The notes under the pieces are model-generated. The model saw only the letters and a program-made list of their open reading frames with translations, was not told the DNA's origin and searched no databases. This document shows, piece after piece, positions 1-10,618 of a stretch of 11,075 nt of DNA (position 1 is the stretch's first letter; each line of letters begins with the position of its first letter). A program made the position numbers and the translations under genes. The stretch is from Alphaproteobacteria bacterium (GTDB lineage: Bacteria > Pseudomonadota > Alphaproteobacteria > UBA6615): NCBI GenBank assembly GCA_965261975.1, contig CBDHEC010000032.1:1-11075 (forward strand), written 5' to 3'.

Positions 1-1969
1 CGTGGCGGATCGACACGCAGCCGGGAACAAGTCCCTCGACGACCCGGGCGCGGATGGTGATGGAATCCTTCGGACTTTCGATCACAACCATCTGCTCGTC
101 GACGATGCCGTATCTGGCGGCGTCGACCGAATTGATCTCGACCCAGTTCTCCGGGCAGATCTCCATCAGCATCGGGTTGTTCTGCGTGACGATATTGCAG
201 TGCATGGACAGCTTCGAATGCGTTACCTGCAGCGGATAGTCCTTGTCCGGATGAACCGTGCGCTCGGAATACTCGGGATAGGGATTGTATCCGTTGTCGG
301 CGAAATCGTGGCTGTAGATTTCGATCTTGCCGCTCCTGGTGCCGAGCCCCTGCCGGTATTTGTGGAACTCGGTGGCTGCGGTCCAAAGGCCTTTCTCCTT
401 CAGTTCGTCCAGTTCGATCGGCAGATTGGCGATTGCGATTTCTGCCCAATCCTCCCAGGTTTCGTACGGAAAGTACTCGCTCCAGCCCATCTTGCCGGCG
501 ATGCCCTGGACGATCTCGTAGGGTGGCTTGGACTCGCCCACCGGCTCGACCACGGGTTGGCACAGGACCGCCTGCTCCGCGAGCCACAGGCCCTGGCGGA
601 TTTCGGCCATCTCATAAAATGAGGTTTCGGGCAGGACGATATCGCATTCCAGCGCCGTCTCGCTCATCAGCACTTCGCAGGCGACCGCAAGCTCCAGGTG
701 CCTGAACATCTCCTTCACGGTGTCGCGGTCAGGATCGCTCATCACCGGATTGGTCGGCTGCACGAACAGGCCCTTGACCGGATAGGGATTGCCCTCCATC
801 ACCGCTTCCGGCAGCCGTGCATTGGGAAGATCCGGGGACAGCGGAAATCCCATGGCCAGGTGCAGAGGGTGCTTCTCGGGGATGCGCTTTGCTTCCTGAG
901 GTATGACCACCGGTTCCGCCAGGTTCGCCCAGCCCATCAGGTGCAGATTGCCGGGGCCGTCGACCTGACCGGTGATCGCGTCCAGGATGTAACAGGCGCG
1001 GCTGGCATCATGGCCATTGGTGTAACAACCGGCGCCCTTGAATATCGCCGATATGGCCGGCTTCGTTGTCGCGAATTCGCGTGCCAGCCTGCGGATCGTG
1101 GCGGAATCGATGCCGCAGATCTCCGCCGCCCATTCCGGCGTGTAGCCCTTTTCGCTGAGATGGTCGCGGAAGCCGTCGAAGCCCTCACAATACTTTGTCA
1201 CGAAGTCCCGGTCGTGCAGGCCGTCATCGATGATGGTCTTGCACATGGCAAGCGCCATTGCGCCGTCCGTGCCCGGCTTGATGGCGATCCACTCGTCGGC
1301 CTTCTGCGCAGTCTCGGTGAAATTCGGGTCGACGACGACGAGCTTGCAGCCGCGTTTCCTGGCCTCCAGCAGCGCCCGGCTCTCGAACAGGCCCTGATTG
1401 GCGCCGAGCATGTTCATCCCCCACAGCATCACGTACCGCGAATTGGCGAAGTCGTGCATCGGAAAATCGTGCGAGAACAATGTGCGGCAGGCGACCCGCC
1501 GGTCCATCTCGCAACCCGAAGTGTGCGTATACATGTTTGGCGAGCCATAGAGATCGCCGAGCAGATGCCGGTAGAACTGCGTGTTGGGATCGTGATGGCT
1601 GGTCAGCGCGACCGCCTCGGGACCCCACTTGTCCGCGATCAGTTTCAGCTTGTCGGCGATGAAAGTGAAGGCTTCATCCCAGCCGATGCGCTTGAACTCG
1701 CCGGGTTCGCCTTTTTTGTTGGTGCGCAGCAGCGGATATTTCAGCCGGTCCGGGTCCCAGGTCATCCACCAACTCGCCATGCCCTTGGCGCAACGCGTGC
1801 CGGCATTGTTCGGCGCATCGGCGTTGCCCTTGACGTAGACGACCTTGCCGTCGCGGACAAAAACGTCGGTGGGGCAGTTCCACGGGCAAGAGTAGCAAAA
1901 ACTCTTGATCACGGCTGCGCCCTTGATCGCTGCTATCCGATCCGACAGGTCTTTCTGTACAACGTTCAT
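1..1969 (-). CDS. Mo/W-bisPGD oxidoreductase catalytic subunit, PhsA/PsrA-like, paralogue B (3' end outside window)
   Basis: Manual translation from ATG 1969 (GGAGA at 1981-1985) is open to the window edge (656 codons): MNVVQKDLSDRIAAIKG..., FS0 motif CYSCPWNC...RCAKG, Mo-ligand loop GSPNMYTHTSGC, VVVDP, DIVLP. Collinear with 7092-9203 at a constant offset of 7234 nt. Absent from the ORF track because it has no stop inside the window. Confidence 0.95.
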   Translation of the reverse strand, partial: MNVVQKDLSDRIAAIKGAAVIKSFCYSCPWNCPTDVFVRDGKVVYVKGNADAPNNAGTRCAKGMASWWMTWDPDRLKYPLLRTNKKGEPGEFKRIGWDEAFTFIADKLKLIADKWGPEAVALTSHHDPNTQFYRHLLGDLYGSPNMYTHTSGCEMDRRVACRTLFSHDFPMHDFANSRYVMLWGMNMLGANQGLFESRALLEARKRGCKLVVVDPNFTETAQKADEWIAIKPGTDGAMALAMCKTIIDDGLHDRDFVTKYCEGFDGFRDHLSEKGYTPEWAAEICGIDSATIRRLAREFATTKPAISAIFKGAGCYTNGHDASRACYILDAITGQVDGPGNLHLMGWANLAEPVVIPQEAKRIPEKHPLHLAMGFPLSPDLPNARLPEAVMEGNPYPVKGLFVQPTNPVMSDPDRDTVKEMFRHLELAVACEVLMSETALECDIVLPETSFYEMAEIRQGLWLAEQAVLCQPVVEPVGESKPPYEIVQGIAGKMGWSEYFPYETWEDWAEIAIANLPIELDELKEKGLWTAATEFHKYRQGLGTRSGKIEIYSHDFADNGYNPYPEYSERTVHPDKDYPLQVTHSKLSMHCNIVTQNNPMLMEICPENWVEINSVDAARYGIVDEQMVVIESPKDSITIRARVVEGLVPGCVSIRH

Positions 1970-2169
1970 CGCAAACTCGTTCTCCGGCAATGATCCAGGC
2001 TCCGACCCGGTGGCCGGGGAAGCCGCGGGAACGTTGTTTAACGGGTGTGTCGGAGCGACGGAAGGGCGCGTGCACCGGGTTTTCCATGACCCGCGGTCAT
2101 GGACCCCATCTCACGAACCGCGATGCGGAAATTGGAGTTTGATTTTACCCGTAACCTATGGCTTGCTCA

Positions 2170-2325
2170 TCCGGCTTGGTGTCCGCCGCGTCGGCGGAAG
2201 AATCGGGAATCCGGTCGAATTCCGGAACGTGCCCAACGCTGTGATGGTGATGACCTTCGCTCGATGCCACTGGGAGACTGGGAAGGCGCGAAGGCCAGGA
2301 GATCCTAAGTCAGAAGACCGGTCAG
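2170..2325 (+). ncRNA. Cobalamin (B12) riboswitch
   Basis: Hallmark elements in order: CGGGAA 2204-2209, TCCGG/CCGGA stem, GCCCAACGCTGTGA 2231-2244, GCCACTG 2266-2272, CTGGGAAGGC 2278-2287, CCTTCGC/GCGAAGG stem (2254-2260/2288-2294), B12 box AGTCAGAAGACCGG 2308-2321; directly upstream of bluB. Ends approximate. Confidence 0.93.
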
Positions 2326-2397
2326 GCAGACGGTTGCGATCCGCGCGGACGGCGGTCGCACCACTGTAAACAGATCTGTGTTGTTGGGAGCAATGCA

Positions 2398-3078
2398 ATG
2401 AATGATCCGTCCGCCCTGGTCGCAGCCGCGGCCTTTTCCGAAGCTGAGCGCCAAGCCGTCTACCGGGCCATATTCACCCGTCGCGACGTGCGCGACCAGT
2501 TCCTGCCCGATGAGATCACCGATGACGTTTTGCGGCAGCTGCTGACCGCCGCGCACCACGCGCCGTCGGTCGGTTTCATGCAGCCCTGGAACTTCATCGT
2601 CATCCGGTCTTCACAGACCAGGCAAAGGATCTGGCAGGCTTTTTCGCGCGCCAATGAGGAGGCGGCCGACATGTTCGAGGGCGAGCGCAGATCCAAGTAC
2701 CGGTCAATGAAACTGGAGGGGATCCGGAAAGCTCCGGTGAACATATGCATCACCTGCGACCGCAGCCGCGGCGGAAAGGTTGTCCTCGGGCGCACACATG
2801 ACCCGAACATGGACTTGTACAGCACGGTCTGTGCGGTCCAGAACCTGTGCCTTGCGGCACGGGCCGAAGGCATAGGTACCGGCTGGGTCAGCATATTCCA
2901 CCAGGATGAACTGAAGGAAATCCTGTCCATTCCCGATCACATCAAGATCGTTTCGTATCTCTGTCTGGGATATGTCGATCAGCTCTATGCCGAGCCTGAA
3001 CTGCAGGTGAAGGGTTGGCGCAGGCGGCTGAATCTGGAGGATCTCGTTTTTGACGAGCAATGGCGGGGGGCCGAATGA
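2398..3078 (+). CDS. bluB: 5,6-dimethylbenzimidazole synthase (flavin destructase, nitroreductase fold)
   Basis: [71 protein letters not shown] motifs typical of BluB; GGGAG RBS at 2386-2390; preceded by a B12 riboswitch. Confidence 0.93.
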
Positions 3079-9251: not shown

Positions 9252-9267
9252 CAATTATATATTATTT
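9252..9267 (-). promoter_or_regulatory. 16-bp box AAATAATATATAATTG upstream of the Mo-enzyme operon (putative operator overlapping -10)
   Basis: Plus strand reads CAATTATATATTATTT, the exact reverse complement of 9504-9519; contains TATAAT and is an imperfect palindrome; ends 48 nt before ATG 9203. Confidence 0.7.
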
Positions 9268-9503
9268 TTCAGAATATCAGTCTCTAATCCCAAAGGCCAG
9301 TCCCAAAAATGCAATTTCTCTTCACGAGCTTTGTTGGACAAACTCGAATGTCCCCCTTCTTATGATGCATAGATGTGGGCCGGATTTCCGGCAATTTCCG
9401 CTTAATGTGCAGATTTCCTAAGCATTCAGCCGGTTCGTCGTGTCGCCGGCCGAGGTGTTTTGCGCGACTATTCCTGTGCCATGGTCAGCTTGCAGCGGAT
9501 CGC

Positions 9504-9519
9504 AAATAATATATAATTG
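9504..9519 (+). promoter_or_regulatory. 16-bp box AAATAATATATAATTG upstream of the methyltransferase (putative operator overlapping -10)
   Basis: Identical to the box at 9252-9267 on the opposite strand; ends 65 nt before ATG 9585. Confidence 0.7.
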
Positions 9520-9584
9520 CTGTGAACATTGGTGCTTCGGCCTGCGAACCGCGTCGCTGGGCCAACAATATTCGCGAGGGGAAA

Positions 9585-10618
9585 ATGACCAGCTTCGAAA
9601 ACGCCCCAACTCATCGTCATTGGTGAAAACATCAATACGACCCGACGGATCCGGACCGATTCCAAAAACATCGTGAAACGTGATGGCAAGGTGTTCTGGC
9701 GCTATCCCGGCCTCGACGGCCAGGAGGGTTTCCTCGACGTTACGGAGCAATGGCCTGATGACGAAGCCAAGATCGCCACCGGACGTATCGGCCATATCGG
9801 CCAGGGCGTGCGCGATCAGGATCTCGATTTCCTGACCTGGGCGATCATGGCACAGGTCAATGCCGGTGCCCACATCGTCGATCTGTGTGTCGATGAACTC
9901 TCAGTCTACCCGGAAGAGCGCCACGAATACATGCGCTGGATCGTCAAGACAGCACAACAGATCTGTCCCGAAGCGTCCATTTGCCGTCGACAGCTCCGAC
10001 CCCGATACCTTGGAGGCCGGCCTCGACGTCTACGACATGTCGCTGTCGCGCCCGGCCATCAACTCGGTCAGCCTGGAGCCGGGCAGGGATGTGGTGATCG
10101 ATATCGGCAAGGAAGCCGGCGCGGTGATCTTTGCCAACGGCTCCGGCGAATCCGGCATGCCTCAGAATGCCCAGGAGCGCATCGACAATTTGACCCAGCT
10201 GATGGCGCTGATGGACGAGCGCAAGGTGCCGATGGAGGACCGGTTCCTCGATCCGCTGGTGTTCCCGGTCGGAGCCGGGCCGCAATACGGCGTCGACTAT
10301 CTGGATTCGGTCAAGGGCCTGCGCGCCAAGTTCCCCGACGTCCACATATTCGGCGGGTTGTCGAACGTCTCGTTCGGTCTGCCGCGGCGCAAGCTGCTCA
10401 ACGACGCCTTCATCCGGCTTTCCATGGAGGCCGGCTGCGATGCCGTGATGATCGATCCGATCATGAACCCGCTGAACGAGATCACGGCACCGCCGGTGAA
10501 CGAAGAGGAATACAAACTCGCTGCCGCGGTCATGACGGCGGAAGACGAATACGGGCTGAACTATCTCAAATATGTCCGCAGTCAGGCCGAAAAGCCAATG
10601 GCGGCCGCCGGCGCCTAA
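9585..10618 (+). pseudogene. Pterin-binding (DHPS-like barrel) methyl-THF:corrinoid methyltransferase, AcsE/MetH-domain like, with two +1 frameshifts (pseudogene or sequencing errors)
   Basis: GAGGGG RBS then ATG 9585; LIVIGENINTT and AQVNAGAHIVDLCVD lie in the next frame (9589 to about 9980); AVDSSDP, PAINSVSLE, FLDPLVFPVG, GGLSNVSFGLPRRKLLN, MIDP lie in the third frame to TAA 10618. Removing two bases yields one 343-aa ORF. Confidence 0.8.

Follow-up and report, generated by a model that had tools for sequence, protein, structure and literature searches.

The window analysed here is the complete 11,075-bp contig CBDHEC010000032.1 (contig C32) from the metagenome-assembled genome (MAG) of an Alphaproteobacteria bacterium, and its positions 6523-10618 are the core of a conserved, uncharacterised island of uncultured Proteobacteria. 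The three genes of this core encode a molybdenum enzyme (MoA2), the iron-sulfur (FeS) partner subunit of that enzyme and a probable methyltetrahydrofolate:corrinoid methyltransferase (MeTr); a second molybdenum enzyme, the paralogue MoA1, is encoded on the same contig. In loci from related bacteria the molybdenum gene recurs together with genes for corrinoid-dependent methyl transfer, and the molybdenum enzyme and the corrinoid system very probably work together. Judging from the neighbouring genes, we tentatively propose that the molybdenum enzyme could carry out the redox step in a B12-dependent demethylation of methylated arsenic. The parts belong to known families and their combination is new. 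We found no description of this gene combination in the literature, most subscription journals lying outside the search.

Molybdenum enzymes and their conserved gene neighbourhood

We collected 75 loci that encode close relatives (71-88% identical) of the 703-aa MoA2 from two scans of one-genome-per-species contigs. All 75 come from MAGs of uncultured Alpha-, Beta- and Gammaproteobacteria. Open reading frames (ORFs) were called in these loci, clustered and named with Pfam and NCBIfam, and the neighbour families were counted by tblastn, each queried with at most six representatives. The counts cover 10 kb around the molybdenum gene, and 44 of the loci have full flanks, which means at least 8 kb on both sides.

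Parts of a corrinoid methyl-transfer system (URO-D, MttB, corrinoid protein, MeTr or RACo) were detected in 54 of the 75 loci and in 35 of the 44 with full flanks. MtaA/CmuA-like methyltransferases of the URO-D type are found in 47 loci, the corrinoid protein in 45, RACo in 22, MeTr in 21 and MttB in four. Besides these parts, CobW is encoded in 22 loci, a protein with a homocysteine methyltransferase domain in 12 and a polytopic membrane protein resembling NarI in 26. The initial annotation, which was made from the window only, had linked the molybdenum enzymes to corrinoid methyl transfer and had predicted such partners beside homologous genes, and both the link and the partners were recovered in these neighbourhoods.

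The recurring operon consists of the genes for the molybdenum enzyme, the FeS subunit, optionally an ABC importer, URO-D, the corrinoid protein and the NarI-like protein. An FeS orthologue follows the molybdenum gene in 68 of the 75 loci and in all 44 loci with full flanks. The NarI-like gene sits after the corrinoid protein gene and does not adjoin the FeS gene. Ten out of 11 members of this membrane protein family gave weak matches to NarI (Pfam: PF02665), the best with an E-value of 4.5e-7, and a profile of the family had no match among the PDB sequences at E-values up to 1. Fuller islands carry one or two URO-D or MttB genes and often MeTr, RACo, CobW, an ABC importer or an aquaglyceroporin, although many full operons are without RACo within 10 kb. 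The importer is of the branched-chain type with its binding protein in 19 of the 75 loci, and a second ABC type is found beside the MttB versions. The aquaglyceroporin, a MIP channel, is found in 16 loci.

The gene arrangement around the operon differs between lineages. In the clade of the window (locus L003, Paracoccaceae, Anderseniella and Amylibacter) the operon is followed by arsR-arsD-arsA, and the divergent side carries MeTr, a GntR gene, CobW, RACo, the corrinoid protein and a second URO-D gene. In Rhodospirillaceae and Magnetovibrio an MTHFR-like gene, aioB, aioA, a pentapeptide-repeat gene and a MIP channel gene precede the operon on the same strand. Loci of the Acidiferrobacteraceae type have MttB in place of URO-D, and molybdenum enzymes of about 73% identity adjoin these two unrelated families of methyl-donor enzymes. 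In L004 MetF and a MetV-like gene lie beside the molybdenum genes, which fits the oxidation of methyl-tetrahydrofolate.

Arsenic genes, either AioA/AioB or ArsA/ArsD, were detected in 28 of the 75 loci and in 17 of the 44 with full flanks. Their assignment follows curated models, with 1248 bits for AioA (TIGR02693, cut-off 359), 172 bits for AioB (cut-off 96), 756 bits for ArsA (TIGR04291, cut-off 650) and 107 bits for ArsD (cut-off 90). In the tree of the molybdenum enzymes they are spread over several separate clades, in at least four arrangements, and neither the Arenicellales clade nor the clade without corrinoid parts has them. ArsR heads or accompanies some of the loci.

Two further sets of neighbours were observed. 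A protein of about 230 aa with a weak hemopexin-repeat match (Pfam: PF00045, E-value 7e-10) and no NCBIfam match is encoded in 12 of the 75 loci, directly after or near the FeS gene; it follows the FeS gene in L003, L011, L014, L016, L021 and L026. Arenicellales and related Gammaproteobacteria (L028, L032, L033, L038, L041-L045, L052 and L074) have small conserved, uncharacterised genes downstream of the operon, together with genes for a CDGSH iron-sulfur protein and a DUF3530 protein, and after these phoU/pstS/pst. The phosphate-transport neighbours may be plain lineage synteny or may have a link to phosphate or arsenate physiology.

Both molybdenum proteins of the window are catalytic subunits with a molybdenum-bis(pyranopterin guanine dinucleotide) cofactor (Mo-bisPGD; see Table 1). 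The top NCBIfam model for both is PhsA, with 413.5 bits for MoA2 and 386.8 bits for MoA1 against a cut-off of 694. No twin-arginine leader is present at the N-terminus of either protein, where the 4Fe-4S cysteine motif begins at residue 25 and residue 21 of MoA2 aligns with residue 40 of PsrA, and because of the missing leader we read the enzyme as cytoplasmic. Cys153 of MoA2 aligns with the ArrA cysteine and with Cys173 of T. thermophilus PsrA (PDB: 2VPW), which we take to be the molybdenum ligand, and it is invariant across a 26-member alignment of the family. Compared to the PDB sequences, MoA2 scores 292 bits with PsrA (2VPW) and 189 bits with FdhH. The ArrA model gives 187 and 165 bits for the two proteins against a cut-off of 1600, the formate dehydrogenase alpha model (TIGR01591) 297 bits against 666 and the NarG model 96 bits against 1084. 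At the ligand cysteine the motif reads H-T-S-G-C...R-R in MoA2 and H-S-S-V-C...H-K in ArrA; in sequence it resembles ArrA more closely than PsrA. The residue following the cysteine is glutamate in MoA2 and histidine in both formate dehydrogenases aligned alongside.

The search with MoA2 returned 6,590 database matches, of which the best 120 are 71-88% identical; the identity to L003 is 88%. The mean column identity in the 26-member alignment, which covers three proteobacterial classes, is 82%. MoA2 thus belongs to a tightly conserved, uncharacterised clade, for which the source databases give automatic names only. Its FeS partner contains 16 cysteines in four cluster motifs. According to the ORF listing and the family scans, no membrane-protein gene follows the FeS gene in the window.

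MoA1 is 82.9% identical to MoA2 over 656 residues, and both paralogues are, as judged from a ratio of nonsynonymous to synonymous substitution rates (dN/dS) of 0.13, under purifying selection. At the nucleotide level, positions 7235-7534 and the initial 300 nt of the contig share 93% identity. In the tree, MoA1 branches below the clade of MoA2, L003 and Anderseniella. Within its covered part it retains 267 of 278 family-invariant positions. Three of the 11 changes (L162R, G166S and V168D) sit just after the molybdenum-ligand cysteine, which suggests that the substrate pocket of MoA1 may be shifted.

Two copies of the molybdenum enzyme were also observed in L018/L027 (one Burkholderiaceae contig), L024 (in tandem) and L012/L017 (one Paracoccaceae MAG). 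In some two-copy genomes each copy has its own type of methyl donor, with URO-D beside one and MttB beside the other.

Candidate substrate and direction of methyl transfer

Phytoplankton and soil microbes make methylated arsenic on a large scale, and when it is demethylated, toxic inorganic arsenic gets back into water and rice paddies. To our knowledge, the oxygen-dependent C-As lyase ArsI is the only dedicated demethylation enzyme. Marine SAR11 bacteria oxidise the methyl carbons of dimethylarsinate by a folate-linked route, whose enzymes are marked as not yet determined experimentally in the accessible part of that study (PMC6426599). As far as the available portions of two further sources go, corrinoid methyltransferases of methanogens have been implicated in anaerobic arsenic demethylation (bioRxiv 10.64898/2026.08.27.747368) and Ruegeria has an aerobic corrinoid demethylase, MtgB/C/D (PMC12478193).

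In the pathway that we tentatively favour, a methylated pentavalent arsenical (dimethylarsinate, methylarsonate, trimethylarsine oxide or arsenobetaine) would be imported and a Co(I) corrinoid would take over one methyl group as CH3+, leaving a trivalent arsenical. The methyl group would be passed on to tetrahydrofolate via MeTr, or to homocysteine. The molybdenum enzyme would then re-oxidise the trivalent arsenical by oxo-transfer and so enable the removal of the next methyl group, with quinone receiving the electrons by way of the FeS and NarI-like subunits. A redox enzyme would be needed between two demethylations because As(III) cannot lose a further methyl cation, and the nitrogen and sulfur substrates of corrinoid systems would presumably need no such step. 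Arsenite as the end-product would be exported, oxidised by AioAB, or both. The neighbouring genes can be assigned to these steps, with ArsD/ArsA, the MIP channel and AioAB handling arsenite and MeTr, MetF/MetV or the homocysteine methyltransferase accepting the methyl group. Two URO-D paralogues, as in many loci, and two molybdenum paralogues, as in the window, would fit substrates of different methylation states.

A more speculative extension is a complete 'reverse Challenger' pathway. It would mineralise methylated arsenic stepwise and independently of oxygen, including arsenobetaine in the MttB versions, with the two molybdenum paralogues serving different methylation states and arsenite passing to ArsD/ArsA, the aquaglyceroporin and periplasmic AioAB. 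Dimethylarsinoylacetate has been reported as an intermediate when bacteria break down arsenobetaine, and it would fit an MttB-type demethylation followed by oxo-transfer.

Several points weigh against the arsenic proposal. The substrate is deduced from neighbouring genes only, and whether methyl groups are removed or added cannot be read from a sequence. The molybdenum enzyme scores far below the cut-off of the ArrA model, and the G-R-Y stretch of ArrA is missing from the alignment. Aio and ArsA/D genes are both missing from the 10-kb surroundings in 47 of the 75 loci, and the whole Arenicellales clade is among these despite its full operon of Mo, FeS, URO-D, corrinoid and NarI-like genes. Moreover, a corrinoid part is missing within 10 kb in nine of the 44 full-flank loci. 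A single gammaproteobacterial clade accounts for seven of these (L048, L053, L054, L055, L061, L065 and L066); in the remaining two, L030 and L062, AioAB and a homocysteine methyltransferase are encoded instead. In the genome studied here, the MeTr gene is broken as assembled, and URO-D, MttB, a dedicated corrinoid protein, RACo, the NarI-like protein, ArsA/D, AioAB and a MIP channel of the island type were not found in the MAG. A search of 60 related genomes did not detect the molybdenum enzyme, and the rest of the contig (bluB, soxCD and LysR) is without a close DNA match in 40 relatives; 11 genomes from the same genus lack close counterparts of the molybdenum genes and of the other genes alike.

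The initial annotation had proposed a methylated sulfur compound, or another methylated heteroatom, as the substrate. A catabolism of this kind, in which for example the molybdenum enzyme would reduce dimethyl sulfoxide to dimethyl sulfide (DMS) and an MtsA-like corrinoid system would demethylate the product, we consider unlikely, as we do the variant in which selenium or N-oxide analogues are treated alike and the arsenic genes are bystanders. It would agree with the closest solved or modelled relatives of the molybdenum enzyme, which are polysulfide and thiosulfate reductases (292 bits for 2VPW, 413 bits for PhsA), with the soxCD pair in the window and with the 47 loci that are free of arsenic genes; the URO-D enzymes of methanogens also include the DMS-specific MtsA, according to the accessible part of the source (bioRxiv 10.64898/2026.08.27.747368). 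However, no sulfur-metabolism gene recurs beside the molybdenum enzyme. SoxC is found in none of the 75 loci, none of 80 SoxC loci has any part of the system, and searches of the MAG gave neither SoxB nor SoxZ. Arsenic genes, in contrast, are found in 28 of the 75 loci, in several clades and arrangements, which is far above chance for a 20-kb window. A methylated sulfur substrate thus received no specific support from the neighbourhoods, where the recurrent neighbours outside methyl transfer are Aio or ArsA/D (28 of 75) and the aquaglyceroporin (16 of 75), and arsenic fits the recurrent neighbours better than sulfur.

The same list of parts would also serve the opposite direction, in which methyl groups pass from methyl-tetrahydrofolate via MeTr, the corrinoid protein and URO-D to As(III), a corrinoid methylation of arsenite that is independent of S-adenosylmethionine. 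The molybdenum enzyme would then reduce each pentavalent methylated product with quinol electrons for the next methylation. MtaA-type URO-D enzymes normally move the methyl group from the corrinoid to a nucleophile (NCBIfam names them methylcobamide:coenzyme M methyltransferases), the NarI-type anchor serves a cytoplasm-facing reductase in NarGHI, and the presence of ArsR in some loci would also be in keeping with this direction. Nevertheless we regard both the methylation and the reductive role as rather improbable, given the importers in many loci (the branched-chain type in 19 of 75, the second type beside MttB) and the MttB-type methyl-donor enzymes which replace URO-D in four loci. In addition, the MetF/MetV pair and the homocysteine methyltransferase genes point to harvesting of methyl groups and not to spending them, and an arsenite oxidase and a channel in the same operon fit the disposal of arsenite as an end product. 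A helper role of the molybdenum enzyme, either as a formate dehydrogenase which finishes the oxidation of the methyl group or as an electron source for corrinoid re-activation, is the hardest to accommodate and seems very improbable. It would account for formate dehydrogenases being the next-best structural relatives (FdhH and TIGR01591, scores above) and for the same enzyme standing beside the unrelated URO-D and MttB. Yet the ligand cysteine is followed by glutamate and not by histidine, the formate dehydrogenase score is far below its cut-off, many full operons lack RACo within 10 kb, and electrons from the quinone pool would have to go strongly uphill to reduce Co(II) to Co(I).

The island in this genome and its local neighbours

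Gene calls combined the ORF listing with Pfam and NCBIfam family scans, and the whole window was scanned with Rfam, which detected the cobalamin riboswitch only. Every gene listed in the initial annotation was found in the window; the LysR-family and GntR/FCD regulators in Table 1 are additional to it. An 80-aa ORF at 3092-3334 and the long antisense ORFs have no family matches and were treated as spurious.

Table 1. Features of the 11,075-bp window, in order of position.
Feature	Position	Strand	Basis and remarks
MoA1, paralogous leaderless Mo-bisPGD catalytic subunit	2..1969	-	PF04879/PF00384/PF01568; about 47 C-terminal residues lost at the contig end
Cobalamin riboswitch	2160..2340	+	RF00174, 98.2 bits (gathering threshold 31.5); full model, 1-189
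bluB (5,6-dimethylbenzimidazole synthase)	2398..3078	+	TIGR02476, 289.9 bits (cut-off 150)
SoxD-like monohaem cytochrome c, 177 aa, partner of SoxC	3167..3700	-	PF13442 and PF00034; signal peptide
SoxC-family sulfite dehydrogenase (molybdenum-molybdopterin)	3678..4970	-	TIGR04555, 501.9 bits (cut-off 420); twin-arginine leader
LysR-family regulator	5377..6408	-	PF00126 and PF03466
Four-cluster FeS electron-transfer subunit of MoA2, DmsB/PsrB-like	6523..7080	-	TIGR02951, 146 bits (below the cut-off of 214)
MoA2, 703-aa leaderless Mo-bisPGD catalytic subunit	7092..9203	-	PF04879/PF00384/PF01568
AT-rich box, copy 1	9252..9268		some 50 nt before the MoA2 start codon; TATAAT on the strand of the gene
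G-run motif, GAAGGGGGACATTC	9346..9359	-	between the divergent MeTr and MoA genes, some 150 nt before MoA2
AT-rich box, copy 2 (inverted)	9505..9521		about 65 nt upstream of the methyltransferase start
MeTr/MtgD-like methyl-tetrahydrofolate:corrinoid methyltransferase gene	9586..10618	+	PF00809 and comparison with orthologues; read in three frames here
GntR/FCD regulator, C-terminal part	10686..11075	-	PF07729; cut by the contig end

The MAG comprises 59 contigs with 3.03 Mb in total and is 94.6% complete. Contig C32 has a G+C content of about 60%, both of its ends fall inside genes, and its depth is 2-4x in the sole run that contains it; no RNA run containing it was listed. As an independent check we used the Logan contigs of run X1, which contains 90% of the sampled words. 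A single Logan contig covers positions 2415-7206 and so reproduces the adjacency of bluB, soxDC, LysR and the FeS gene, although it may stem from the same sample; none of the Logan contigs extends beyond either end of contig C32. A second run, X2, contained short pieces only, mostly less than 95% alike and from relatives, and was not used.

The synteny shared with the relatives is confined to the three-gene core MeTr-MoA2-FeS, with the second molybdenum paralogue also present. On one side it ends right after the FeS gene, where LysR-soxCD replaces arsRDA or the importer, and on the other side right after MeTr. The search for the missing parts was made by tblastn against the MAG with six representatives of each family, and with a genome 94.6% complete their absence is unproven. 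The only corrinoid-type match is the MetH gene on contig C36, and the RACo query matched a ferredoxin domain only, with 57 bits. The pathway in this genome is therefore incomplete as assembled, and the missing partners may be unassembled, given the depth of 2-4x.

Because the molybdenum enzyme and its neighbours lack counterparts in the related genomes, contig C32 may be an acquired island, a remnant or a mis-binned piece. The stronger claim, that this organism has no such pathway at all and that a stranded remnant came to lie by chance beside soxCD, LysR and bluB, or that the contig was mis-binned, strikes us as fairly improbable. The abrupt ends of the synteny, the lack of any other island part in the MAG, the two breaks in MeTr and the absence of the molybdenum enzyme from all 60 related genomes and of close DNA matches to the other contig genes in 40 relatives speak for this reading. 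On the other hand, neither molybdenum gene is disrupted within the contig and the two have a dN/dS of 0.13, one of the MeTr breaks is missing from the independent assembly and both may be errors at this depth, and the incompleteness of the MAG together with contig ends inside genes leaves room for unassembled parts.

The 252-aa ORF at 9860-10618 had been annotated as the methyltransferase. This ORF is only the C-terminal two thirds of a pterin-binding methyltransferase gene of about 340 aa. This piece scores 35.8 bits with PF00809 (cut-off 25.5) and 140.8 bits with NF005719 (cut-off 259), the gene being broken as assembled. Comparison with six intact orthologues located one extra base in a run of C near 9601-9604 and another near 9975-9982; the gene is otherwise 80-88% identical to intact orthologues, which are placed divergently to the molybdenum gene. 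A Logan contig of run X1 with a depth of 2.3 has one base fewer at 9979, which restores the frame, and the break near 9979 is probably an assembly error. The break near 9604 lies at the end of a Logan contig that ends at 9606 and cannot be judged there. That both are errors of a low-depth assembly is likely, though not settled. A pseudogene was considered as well; it is weakened by the Logan contig without the base at 9979 and is still allowed by the break near 9604.

In the intergenic region between MeTr and MoA2, the initial annotation had pointed out an identical upstream box. Two copies of a 17-nt AT-rich box do exist, identical at 16 of 17 positions and with TATAAT about 50-65 nt before each start codon, but no copy was found upstream of MoA1 and the box is not conserved in the relatives, where it was absent from all 15 corresponding intergenic regions with up to four mismatches allowed. 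This absence speaks against a conserved shared operator. A promoter scan gave one weak site, not above shuffled sequence, and we read the boxes as probable lineage-specific promoter-like sequence, not as a conserved regulatory site. The same region contains a G-run motif, which reads GAAGGGGGACATTC in the window and GAAGGGGGGGTATTC in most relatives. Its regular expression matches at the same place in 11 out of 11 loci of the window's clade, among them L003 and L008-L016, and in none of five more distant divergent loci, with 31 matches in the 2.68 Mb of all loci on both strands. Rfam has nothing at this position. The motif could be an operator or a leader element.

The remaining genes, LysR, soxCD and the riboswitch with bluB, are local neighbours outside the system. 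The riboswitch lies on the same strand as bluB, 58 nt upstream of its start, and the control of bluB by a cobalamin riboswitch is an ordinary arrangement, as in Sinorhizobium. The suggestion of a B12 supply for the pathway holds in so far as the riboswitch and bluB are present; as a dedicated supply it is weak, with bluB within 10 kb of the molybdenum gene in only four of the 75 loci and in three of the 44 with full flanks. SoxCD had likewise been proposed as a part of the pathway, and the counts contradict this in both directions. SoxC occurs in none of the 75 molybdenum loci, nor in the 44 with full flanks, and none of the 80 SoxC loci has a Mo, corrinoid, URO-D, MeTr or BluB gene. The cytochrome partner after SoxC, whose gene overlaps the SoxC stop in the window, is kept in 78 of those 80 loci. 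The nearest relatives of SoxC in the one-genome-per-species contigs are at most 56% identical and mostly from Gammaproteobacteria and Gemmatimonadota. No match to SoxB (TIGR04486) or SoxZ (Pfam: PF08770) was found in the 94.6% complete MAG. The soxCD genes here thus look like a stand-alone periplasmic sulfite-dehydrogenase pair.

LysR genes are present in 13 of the 75 loci, the best of them 43% identical to the one in the window, compared to 53% for a paralogue on contig C36 of the same genome, so that orthology with the LysR genes of the relatives appears doubtful. The GntR/FCD regulator is 28-31% identical to the GntR proteins flanking MeTr in the relatives, compared to 80-88% for MoA and MeTr, and is probably not their orthologue.

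Significance and comparison with known systems

The island is a concrete, testable candidate for the missing route of methylated-arsenic demethylation. If the proposal is true, the PsrA/ArrA branch of molybdoenzymes gains a new physiological role, and under the reverse Challenger version the cell would gain C1 units as well as respiratory electrons. All 75 loci come from uncultured bacteria, so the system has so far been beyond the reach of genetics. The window by itself is of smaller value, being a fragment of the island on a low-coverage contig.

The best sequence match is to PsrABC and PhsABC (2VPW; Salmonella PhsA, NF012032), which share with the island the domain order with an N-terminal 4Fe-4S motif, the aligned cysteine and a four-cluster FeS partner. 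However, MoA has no twin-arginine leader, is predicted to face the cytoplasm and scores less than the 694 bits that the PhsA model requires. An NrfD-type PsrC or PhsC gene is lacking, the relatives have the NarI-like protein instead, and the neighbours are corrinoid and arsenic genes and not sulfur genes. ArrAB and ArxAB (Shewanella ANA-3 ArrA, PDB: 6CZ7) belong to the same Mo-bisPGD branch, and ArrA is the second-best match over the N-terminal third of MoA, with 95 bits. The motif H-T-S-G-C of the window resembles H-S-S-V-C of ArrA, with a basic residue five positions on, and these ArrA positions reportedly contact arsenate. Unlike the cytoplasmic MoA, these enzymes are periplasmic, and the low ArrA score and the missing G-R-Y stretch set MoA further apart.

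NarGHI and SoeABC also combine a leaderless catalytic subunit with a four-cluster FeS subunit and a quinone-linked membrane subunit. MoA reaches only 96 bits with the NarG model against 1084, though, and the membrane gene of the island is not beside the FeS gene and was not found in the MAG. As for the Sox system, SoxC of the window passes the TIGR04555 cut-off and has a c-type cytochrome gene after it as in SoxCD, but this cytochrome is a 177-aa monohaem protein, and neither SoxB nor SoxZ turned up in the MAG.

The corrinoid side resembles the MtgB-MtgC-MtgD(-MtgE) system with MetF2 of Ruegeria pomeroyi and Phaeobacter inhibens (PMC12478193). In contrast to the island, no molybdenum enzyme, NarI-like protein or arsenic gene is described in the accessible part of that report, and the island mostly uses URO-D and not MttB. 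Within the same part of the report, the pterin-binding methyltransferase MT2 has a probable counterpart in the MtgD-like MeTr of the window, and MT2, the corrinoid protein, the methyl-donor methyltransferase, the folate-linked oxidation of the methyl group and the homocysteine methyltransferase option are all matched in the loci of the relatives.

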